From IMG/VR virus record IMGVR_UViG_2534681941_000042, positions 1 through 5,716 of that record: 5,716 nt of DNA, one strand, 5' to 3'. This document shows, piece after piece, positions 3,001-5,716 of the stretch. This DNA comes from a virus. Taxonomy: Duplodnaviria; Heunggongvirae; Uroviricota; Caudoviricetes. How positions within the stretch are numbered: position 1 is the first letter of the stretch; every line of letters starts with the position of its first letter. Made by a program: the position numbers.

Positions 3001-5716
3001 GAAGATTCTCAACCGGGGACGCTGAATGATTTTCTCGGTGCCATGTCGGAGGATGACGTCCGGCCGGAGGCACTGCGTCGTTTTGAACTGATGGTGGAAG
3101 AAGCGGCGCGTCACGCTGAGGAGGCGAAGAAGAATGCCGGAGAGGCGGAGACGTCCGCGAGGAATGCCGGCATATCAGCCAGTCAGGCAGAAGAGAGCGC
3201 GGCAAATGCTGACACTTCAGCAGGGGATGCATTGGAGTCAGCCCGGCAGGCGGCAGAAAGTGCAGCCGCTGCAAAGCAGTCAGAGGAGGCGTCCTCGTCC
3301 TCGGCCTCTGCGGCCGCTCAAAAAGCCAGTGAGTCATTACAAAGTGCAACAGATGCTGAGTTGTCAAAAAAGACGGCAGAAAGTGCAGCCGGTAATGCAG
3401 CCAGGGATGCAACGACCGCAGCAGAAAAAGCCCGGGAGTCAGCAGAAAGCGCACAGTCAGCGGAACAAAGCAGGATAGCGGCGGAAGAAGCCGTAAACCG
3501 AATCCCCACCGTGGTGGGGCCTCCCGGGCCAAAGGGGGAACCGGGGCCCGCGGGTCCTCAGGGGCCGAAGGGAGATAAAGGAGAGCGTGGAGACACCGGC
3601 CCGGCAGGGGCAACCGGCGAACGGGGACCGGCAGGTGATGCTGGTCCGGCAGGCCCGCAGGGGCCGAAAGGTGACAGGGGAGAGACCGGTCTGACGGGAA
3701 ATGCAGGTCCACAGGGTCCAAAGGGAGACACCGGGGCAGCAGGCCCGGCAGGCCCACAGGGACCGAAAGGAGAAACAGGTGCGGCTGGCCCGGTGGGGGC
3801 AACCGGACCTCAGGGACCGAAGGGCGACCCGGGGGAGACACAAATCCGTTTTCGTCTGGGGCCGGCGAGCATTATTGAGACAAACAGCCATGGCTGGTTC
3901 CCGGGTACAGATGGTGCGCTCATCACCGGACTGACCTTTCTTGCCCCCAAAGATGCCACACGGGTTCAGGTTTTTTTTCAGCATTTGCAGGTCAGGTTTG
4001 GTGACGGGCCGTGGCAGGATGTTAAGGGGCTGGATGAAGTGGGCAGTGATACAGGCAGAACAGGAGAATGACATGAACATATTAAAAAAAATTATGCAGC
4101 GTCTGTGCGGTTGCGGAAAGCATGATGACTGTGAACACGGGCAGTCGCTTACAGTACAACTGCGACTGGGGCCGGCAGACATCCTGGAGTCAGATGAGAA
4201 TGGCATTATTCCGGAGCAGGACGGGGTAATCACGCAGGTGGTGATACTGGATGCAGATAAAAAGCAGATACAGTGTGTGGTAAGACCGCTGCAAATTCTG
4301 CGTGCTGACGGGAGGTGGGAAAATATTGGCGGAATGAAATAGCCGACAGCTTCACAAAACCGGAGTCCGGCTCCGGTTTTTTGTTGGTTAGATGTAATCT
4401 GACAGATACCTGTATAAATAACCGGTAACAGTCAGGTCAGAGCTAATATAGGTAATTATATTATAATCACGAGCGCTTAGATGTATTAATGCCATGCTCT
4501 GCAAGATGCTGCATCAGACGCTGAGCCACATCAGGCAAAGGTCTTGATTGTTCATTTTGTACTGGCGGCGTTGGCGCAGGCCAGTTAGGTGCCGGAGGAA
4601 TATGTTCAGCCATATTCCGGGCTGGTTGAATGCCATGCTCTGCAAGATGCTGCATCAGACGCTGAGCCACATCAGGCAAAGGTCTTGATTGTTCATTTTG
4701 TACTGGCGGCGTTGGCGCAGGCCAGTTAGGTGCCGGAGGAATATGTTCAGCCATATTCCGGGCTGGTTGAATGCCATGCTCTGCAAGATGCTGCATCAGA
4801 CGCTGAGCCACATCAGGCAGAGGTCTTGATTGTTCATTTTGTACTGGCGGTGGTGGCGCAGGCCAGTTAGGTGCCGGAGGAATATGTTCAGCCATACTCC
4901 GGGCTGGTTGAATGCCATGCTCTGCAAGATGCTGCACCAGACGCTGAGCTACATCAGGTAGAGGCCGATGTAAAGCGTTTTTTTCTATACTTGACTGAGT
5001 ATAAGATGTGGGACGTTGAAGTCCTGATTCTGTATAAGAATTTTTTACCTTAAAAATAGTTGTTGCACTGGCAGGACTGTTGCTGGGAGAAAAAGGTGAG
5101 CTGGTTTTTACCGTGTTAGGTGTGCTTTTGTGCTGCGAGACAGTGAAGGTACTGCTGCGTATAGCACTTGATATACTGCGAGGAAGGCCGGAAAAAAAGA
5201 ATTAATGCTATTTATCATATAGATAACCTTATAAGAGCTTTATTGGATAGTCTTATTTATCCGTTTACATGAAATCTACCTTTTGTGAAATTCTCGTCAA
5301 TATTTTACTCAAAATGATCGGCTGTAGGAATAAACTATTTGATATTATTACGTTTTTAGAGTTGTTTTCAATCAGCTATAGATAGGGCTTGGCGCCAGAA
5401 TGGAGAATATTTAACGAGGAATAGAAGCTTTGTATCAGACGGGCTTCCCTAAATAGAGAAGTTAAATAATCAGGATGATGCTAATGAATATCAGGGACAA
5501 GGTGAGTGTCTTCATGTTCAGTGAAACAGGGTGTCACAAAAAAGATTGGGGAGGGCTAGAGCCTTCTGCACGAAAATAGTGATGCGACAGATCTGAGATG
5601 GCTTTGTATCCTTCTGCCTGGTTCAGGCCTGGAGCAGTCCATGTTTTACAAAAATACTCGGCAGCGTAACGTGTTGCAAGAGCGGCATCAGACGAGGAAC
5701 CTGAGGTTCCGCTCAT

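Follow-up and report, generated by a model that had tools for sequence, protein, structure and literature searches.

An 89-residue protein encoded immediately after the collagen-like side tail fiber gene (stf) of a lambdoid prophage is a stand-alone paralogue of that fiber's own C-terminal tip domain, PfC; it is inherited together with the tip and its domain is under strong purifying selection. The gene was examined in positions 1 to 5,716 of IMG/VR virus record IMGVR_UViG_2534681941_000042, a stretch of 5,716 nucleotides (nt) referred to here as the window, which corresponds to the right-hand end of the tail region in a lambdoid prophage of enterohemorrhagic Escherichia coli. Our interpretation, preferred over the alternatives yet tentative, is that the protein may assist the fiber tip specifically, as a non-obligate helper or a transient partner.

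The gene accompanies the collagen-like fiber in most lambdoid and Shiga toxin (Stx) prophages of enterohemorrhagic E. coli, and each O157 genome has about 20 places that match the prophage region around the gene. Because it travels with the tip between long- and short-tailed phages, it is part of a unit that may influence the hosts that Stx phages can reach. The puzzle is why a free, strongly conserved copy of the tip domain is retained beside a fiber that can trimerize unaided; solving it would explain a very common phage gene, and could help the engineering of collagen-like fibers.

The existence of the gene is ordinary, in that it belongs to a family already known, annotated and published. 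ORF68 of phage Sp5, L0122 of 933W, CPT_434_24 of phage 434 and a phi24B protein labelled "gp59" in preprint data are the same gene, each of 89 residues, 90-100% identical and placed at the same junction after the fiber gene. Nothing material sets the window copy apart from them; it sits in a long-tailed lambdoid prophage beside a tccP2-like gene, and its alleles at two sites, C20 and G51, are the less common ones. In the GenBank entry for phage 434 the gene is called "tail fiber assembly chaperone", evidently from its position, and the closest RefSeq genome (98.6% identity across the whole window) names the product "phage tail fiber C-terminal domain-containing protein". In Sp5, a short-tailed Stx2 phage, Mondal et al. 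(2016; PMC5155283) described the equivalent as an 89-residue polypeptide made of the phage fiber C-terminus domain, listed ORF68 among the non-essential late genes and the fiber, ORF67, as essential, found no frameshift signal, and suggested that the gene is a possible reservoir for tip variation. Ghosh et al. (2012; PMC3368898) divided the fiber of this type, EPclA, into PfN, coiled coil, collagen and PfC segments, the last of which (residues 363-426) is a trimerization module and nucleates the collagen triple helix as it refolds; circular dichroism indicated little or no alpha-helix, and the small gene was not discussed.

The initial annotation of the window, made from the sequence, had proposed that the open reading frame (ORF) is a paralogue of the tip domain, and this was confirmed. 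BLASTP aligned ORF residues 28-88 with Stf residues 362-424 at 35% identity and 60% positives (E 3e-11), and the global alignment score of the two lay 20 standard deviations above 2000 shuffles. Both are members of PF06820 (Phage_fiber_C), each matching across all 64 profile positions, with scores of 122.7 bits for the ORF and 126.4 bits for Stf against a cut-off of 25; residues 28-89 of the ORF cover profile positions 1-64 of 64 (E 8e-36). The ORF also matches phrog_576, a "tail fiber protein" family, from end to end (residues 1-89 of 89, E 6.4e-59). The conserved alignment columns coincide with the motif skeleton that had been listed for the pair (RLGPA, I, E, G, P, DG, IT, LQ, DG-W), and the pairwise alignment proposed as a check thus returned significant similarity, which disposes of the objection that there might be none. 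At the DNA level, 98 of 237 aligned columns are identical, and a single identical block of 11 nt, CTGGGGCCGGC, is common to both copies at the RLGPA codons. Because they are otherwise largely dissimilar, the ORF and the Stf tip are old paralogues and not the products of a recent duplication.

The reading frame runs from ATG 4073 to the stop codon TAG at 4340-4342. Its start lies 6 nt after an AGGAG ribosome-binding site and is separated from the stf stop by a gap of 1 nt, an arrangement that fits translational coupling to stf, as had been annotated. This junction is all but constant. A survey anchored on the ORF comprised 80 IMG/VR loci fetched with the ORF as query, plus 434, 933W and the window; the protein is 89 residues long in 82 of 83 loci, and the start follows the "...GRTGE" fiber stop by 1 nt in 81 of 84 copies, that is, in every copy with a readable upstream flank. 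The other three are two copies at a contig edge and one without a start. The junction core GGAGAATGACATG was invariant in all 83 surveyed junctions, and the base preceding it (the A of AGGAG) varies. The converse survey, anchored on the fiber tip, established the co-occurrence with this fiber type that the annotation had marked for checking: an intact ORF followed the PfC fiber in 69 of 74 loci, a frameshifted one in four, and none in one.

Selection was estimated as the pooled Nei-Gojobori ratio of nonsynonymous to synonymous substitution rates (dN/dS) over 57 distinct alleles. The ratio was 0.15 for the whole ORF, 0.24 for residues 1-27 and 0.087 for the PfC domain, the last a value that points to strong purifying selection and lies below the 0.23 found for the fiber's own PfC. 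The suggestion that the ORF is a relic of tip-cassette exchange is contradicted by this domain value, by the intactness of about 93% of copies and by the detection of its peptides. A run of eight A's occupies codons 4-7 (window 4084-4091), and three of the four frameshifted IMG/VR copies (L095, L101, L103) are shifted at this tract; either sequencing errors or slippage that inactivates the gene could account for these.

The gene also moves with the tip as a block. The short-tailed phage 933W matches the window over exactly 3532-4386 at 92.7% identity, from inside the collagen to just past the terminator, and the span that the long-tailed phage 434 has in common with the window is 1876-4386, so that both homologies share one right-hand edge at 4386. 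By this comparison, a collagen-tip-ORF-terminator block is common to the two phages, and the ORF travels with the tip. Block exchange of this shape is a known pattern for fiber-plus-chaperone blocks.

A divergent locus extends the association to another fiber. At L083 110-974 (GCA_008387015.1), a 212-residue fiber without collagen has a carbohydrate-binding-like segment and then a divergent PfC, and is followed by a stand-alone homologue of 79 residues (P0124) that overlaps the upstream fiber gene by 14 nt. The two stand-alone copies are 66% identical to each other and the two fiber tips 40%, with cross-comparisons at 29-36%; these identities therefore indicate an old duplication with two lineages, and the free copy is the more conserved. 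Genes for NleG and a SopA-like effector lie near this locus. The gene is strictly co-inherited with PfC tips that sit on three different shafts; together with where it lies, its junction and the common edge of the blocks, this points to a function tied to the fiber tip.

A wide homology search of 1.84 billion representatives gave 58 matches, nearly all of them fragments of the same Escherichia protein. A 993-residue multi-repeat match (P0144) was judged spurious, being an acidic repeat protein. A survey of GTDB genomes yielded only three loci, which gives no basis for conclusions by taxon; one of them is a 92%-identical copy of the ORF that lies on a "Xanthomonas pisi" contig of 725 bp. This copy and a 40%-identical PfC on a "Clostridiales" metagenome-assembled genome contig are probably Escherichia phage DNA that entered as contamination or through mis-binning.

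The N-terminal extension was annotated as a plausible metal-binding knuckle from its CGCGKHDDCEH motif, a claim that is now weakened. The motif is present in the window copy, and across the family only its first half is conserved: among 82 copies, C12 is found in 82, C14 in 81 and H17 in 82, while C20 is found in 35 (Arg in 47) and H22 in 63 (Asn or Asp in 19). The divergent P0124 keeps M-x-I-[LF]-K-K and G-C-x-K, with two cysteines at a different spacing. Because all four proposed ligands (C12, C14, C20 and H22) occur together in only 19 of the 82 copies and the spacing in P0124 differs, a single-chain, four-ligand knuckle is not a family feature. Metal binding through CxCxxH, perhaps across the subunits of a trimer, is speculation. 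As read from the sequence, the protein has no signal peptide, and its N-terminus, MNILKKIMQRLCGC, carries K5, K6 and R10 without a hydrophobic core and has no lipobox such as the phage lipoprotein receptor blockers of the T5 Llp or Cor type possess. PADLOC gave no match to the protein. A lipoprotein or defense reading was rejected for want of a lipobox and of a PADLOC match.

Evidence that the protein is made comes from virion proteomics, which the annotation had recommended. In the available part of the supplement to a phi24B preprint (10.64898/2026.04.10.717836), whose virions were purified by sucrose gradient, two ORF-specific tryptic peptides are reported, ADGTWENIGGMK from the C-terminus and VITQVVILDADKK. 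Both are assigned to hypothetical fiber-ORF fusion entries, which carry the authors' annotation "Spike or just gp59?". Compared with the fiber entry, the fusion entry has one additional spectral match, which among the matches listed occurs only in the low-molecular-weight gel band EA1829; this excess fits a free small protein and not a fusion. The ORF peptides are at trace level relative to the 2267 spectral matches of the fiber, again among the matches listed, and at a level similar to that of Lom, Q and other proteins considered contaminants by the authors. On these tables, we read the peptides as evidence that the protein is translated during lytic growth and that it is not a stoichiometric component of the virion. 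The preprint is silent on the small protein in its main text.

Structure prediction was consistent with an all-beta domain. The AlphaFold2 (AF2) model of the ORF has a helix at residues 3-11, with a predicted local distance difference test (pLDDT) score below 50 for residues 1-31, and the all-beta models of the ORF and the Stf tip agree with the published circular dichroism. If folding of the domain depends on trimer formation, poor monomer models would be no surprise. The top Foldseek match of the ORF model was a weak one (E 0.11) to the fiber chain of a Mu fiber-chaperone complex, 5yvq_A; the Stf-tip model did not reproduce it (best E 1.6), and this fold assignment was dropped. A profile search of the Protein Data Bank by sequence returned only a chance match (E 0.49).

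How might a free copy of the tip serve the fiber? We consider, tentatively, that the product would be a late-expressed, cytoplasmic 10-kDa protein consisting of a free PfC trimerization/tip domain and a 27-residue extension, an old paralogue inherited with the PfC tip at the position that tfa holds in lambda. It would be made alongside Stf, and through the fold core that it has in common with the tip could associate transiently with nascent or assembled Stf PfC, an interaction that we infer from the homology. The tip might thereby be helped to register, fold or remain stable; the bulk of the small protein would then be left behind and would not be stoichiometric in the virion. Late expression is likewise conjectural: since no convincing promoter was found ahead of stf or the ORF and a strong terminator-like hairpin lies at 2729-2750, the pair is probably expressed by read-through of the late operon. 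The hairpin implies that stf and the ORF would need antiterminated late transcription; lom may be expressed separately. It is conceivable but rather unlikely that the protein represents a new kind of assembly factor, a free paralogue of a fiber's trimerization domain that transiently joins or templates the nascent PfC trimer and sets the collagen register, possibly with metal bound by CxCxxH. If true, such a factor would be unrelated to the Tfa, gp38 or gp57A chaperones.

Several observations weigh against a helper role. Among in-frame deletions in Sp5, those that abolished infectivity included fiber ORF67 and not ORF68 (PMC5155283), and the 89-residue ORF is therefore not required for working fibers on K-12. 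Recombinant EPclA trimerizes in E. coli without the small protein (PMC3368898). The peptide evidence in the accessible phi24B data is thin, with two peptides and few spectra, and the AF2 monomers are of low confidence (pLDDT 53 for the ORF and 61 for the Stf tip). As far as the sequence reveals, the protein is not related to Tfa or to any other chaperone family. The C-terminal parts of known Tfa proteins vary along with the fiber tips that they serve; unlike them, the 89-residue protein is more conserved than its tip. The dispensability of ORF68 and the self-trimerization of the recombinant fiber exclude an obligate chaperone; the Sp5 result argues against such a role under laboratory conditions. 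The tip-assembly factor raised by the annotation thus remains the best guess, but only in a non-obligate form.

Next in rank after this helper role, though improbable, is a loosely bound tip accessory, such as an adhesin or specificity modifier; a trimer of the small protein would dock onto the end of Stf and there supply or alter binding that is important on natural hosts and dispensable on K-12. Dispensability on K-12 is compatible with a role in host range, the gene is strictly inherited with the tip, and ORF-specific peptides are listed for the gradient-purified phi24B virions. If virions contained 18 copies of the protein, as they do of the fiber, however, hundreds of spectral matches would be expected where the available tables have a handful, and a host-range determinant should vary, whereas this domain is very conserved. 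We think it less probable still that the protein mimics the tip in soluble form and occupies the Stf receptor, either keeping progeny off debris at lysis or excluding superinfecting phages. Such a mimic would belong to the same fold family as the presumed receptor-binding tip and could well be non-essential in the laboratory, as this gene is, but it would have to act without a signal peptide or a lipobox (the charged K5, K6 and R10 fall in the would-be hydrophobic region), has no PADLOC match, and evolves more slowly than the tip to be mimicked; there is no promoter between stf and the ORF, so expression in the lysogen is unlikely. The alternative or decoy tip that the annotation had entertained is not favored, given this slower evolution of the free copy and the lack of any full-length fiber with this type of tip among the sequences searched. 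The last point also bears on the proposal of Mondal et al. (PMC5155283) that the gene is a silent cassette kept in reserve, able to alter the tip by recombining into stf, to which we assign a lower probability again. Two rare natural chimeras show that recombination happens: P0113 joins the ORF N-terminus up to ...ADILES to a Stf-type tip, and P0059 joins collagen GERGPA directly to ...DILESDENG of the ORF. The identical 11-nt block at the RLGPA codons would suit such an exchange, yet the DNA copies are largely dissimilar outside it, and among 5.8 billion clusters or 1.84 billion representatives no full-length fiber carries an ORF-type tip. The ORF moreover has retained a ribosome-binding site, a start codon and an N-terminal extension of its own; selection on it at the protein level is strong, and it is translated.

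Two further explanations are very improbable. A second fiber isoform, made by frameshifting from stf into the ORF frame, is largely refuted already. The ORF frame stays open over the 44 codons that precede the ATG (3941-4072) and a run of eight T's lies at 3971-3978, and two fusion sequences are in the proteomics database of the phi24B authors, as its supplement records. But the T-run is not conserved, as tip alleles read QGFFQ, QGLFQ or QGMFQ there; the divergent L083 locus lacks a long open extension; no signal for frameshifting was detected by Mondal et al. (PMC5155283); and a fusion would truncate the first PfC domain. No junction-spanning peptide was present among those searched for in the phi24B data, and the ORF-specific excess reported there is in the low-molecular-weight band and not at fiber size. 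A decaying, functionless duplicate of the tip domain would account for the four frameshifted copies and the one missing from 74 loci, and for non-essentiality in Sp5. It is contradicted by the selection analysis, with a domain dN/dS of 0.087, by the full length of 82 of 83 copies, by the retention of a 66%-identical orthologue beside a different fiber, and by the detected peptides.

The features of the window are collected in Table 1.

Table 1. Features of the 5,716-nt window, in order of position.
Feature	Coordinates	Strand	Basis or remark
Gene J, 3' part	1 to about 2035		At window start
lom/ail gene	2103-2702		Between J and stf
Terminator-like hairpin, strong, between lom and stf	2729-2750	+	Terminator scan; terminator also annotated there in the phage 434 record
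stf, collagen-like side tail fiber of EPclA architecture: PfN residues 3-135; coiled coil; collagen about 250 to 361; PfC 362-425; 11-residue tail	2761-4071	+	Pfam PF08400, PF01391, PF06820
Exchangeable block: distal collagen, PfC tip, 89-residue ORF, terminator	3532-4386	+	933W/434 comparison
Stf PfC tip domain, residues 362-425, paralogue of the 89-residue ORF	3844-4035	+	BLASTP, Pfam
stf/ORF junction: AGGAG 4062-4066, stf stop TGA 4069-4071, one spacer base, ATG 4073	4062-4075	+
89-residue stand-alone PfC protein	4073-4342	+	ORF call, phrog_576, PF06820
N-terminal extension, residues 1-27: helix 3-11, C12-G-C14-G-K-H17 (nt 4106-4123), variable low-confidence linker	4073-4153	+	AF2, alignment
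PfC domain of the 89-residue protein, residues 28-89	4154-4339	+	PF06820; dN/dS 0.087; predicted all-beta, low confidence
Terminator-like hairpin (4356-4380) and T-run, closing the stf-ORF pair	4356-4386	+	Terminator scan
EspF-repeat (tccP2-like) gene	4467-4937	-	3' of the 4356-4386 terminator
EspV fragment	5534-5716	-	At window end

Gene J differs from that of the closest RefSeq genome by four single-base insertions or deletions, at window 368, 610, 758 and 1385, and is split across three reading frames (ORFs 31-399, 420-626, 756-1415 and 1388-2035). Either the central tail fiber of this prophage is dead or these are base-calling errors in the assembly; stf and the 89-residue ORF, unlike gene J, are intact. 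Relative to the same genome, the collagen of stf has a 9-nt in-frame deletion at window 3676 (three codons, one Gly-X-Y unit), which fits the triplet-wise variation in length reported for EPclA fibers (PMC3368898). The EspF-repeat (TccP2-like) effector gene contains three near-identical repeats of 47 residues, or 141 bp, each; the copy in the closest RefSeq genome is annotated as frameshifted.

Among known systems, the tip adhesins of the T2/T6 gp38 type are similarly encoded right after the distal fiber gene, and the small protein could likewise sit on the tip; it has no homology to gp38, however, its reported virion traces are far below stoichiometric, and receptor binding is without support. 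The comparison with lambda Tfa and the Mu/P2-type assembly proteins (Caudo_TAP) is closer in position. The gene stands directly after stf, abuts its stop codon and is inherited as a block with the tip, and the gene order J-lom-stf-ORF is exactly the place of lambda tfa, contrary to the annotation, which had denied the ORF both the position and the architecture of a classical Tfa. The denial holds for architecture: there was no Tfa or Caudo_TAP match in Pfam at E<=1 and no NCBIfam match, so that the homology to an unrelated family such as Tfa that the annotation had named as a possible objection did not appear, and the families to which the ORF does belong are phrog_576 and PF06820. The protein is half the size of Tfa, is homologous to the fiber tip, as Tfa is not, and its Sp5 equivalent is dispensable for an essential fiber. 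With the PfC of EPclA (PMC3368898) it has the Pfam domain in common at 35% identity, without the collagen, the shaft or the 11-residue C-terminal tail, and with the addition of a 27-residue CxCxxH extension.

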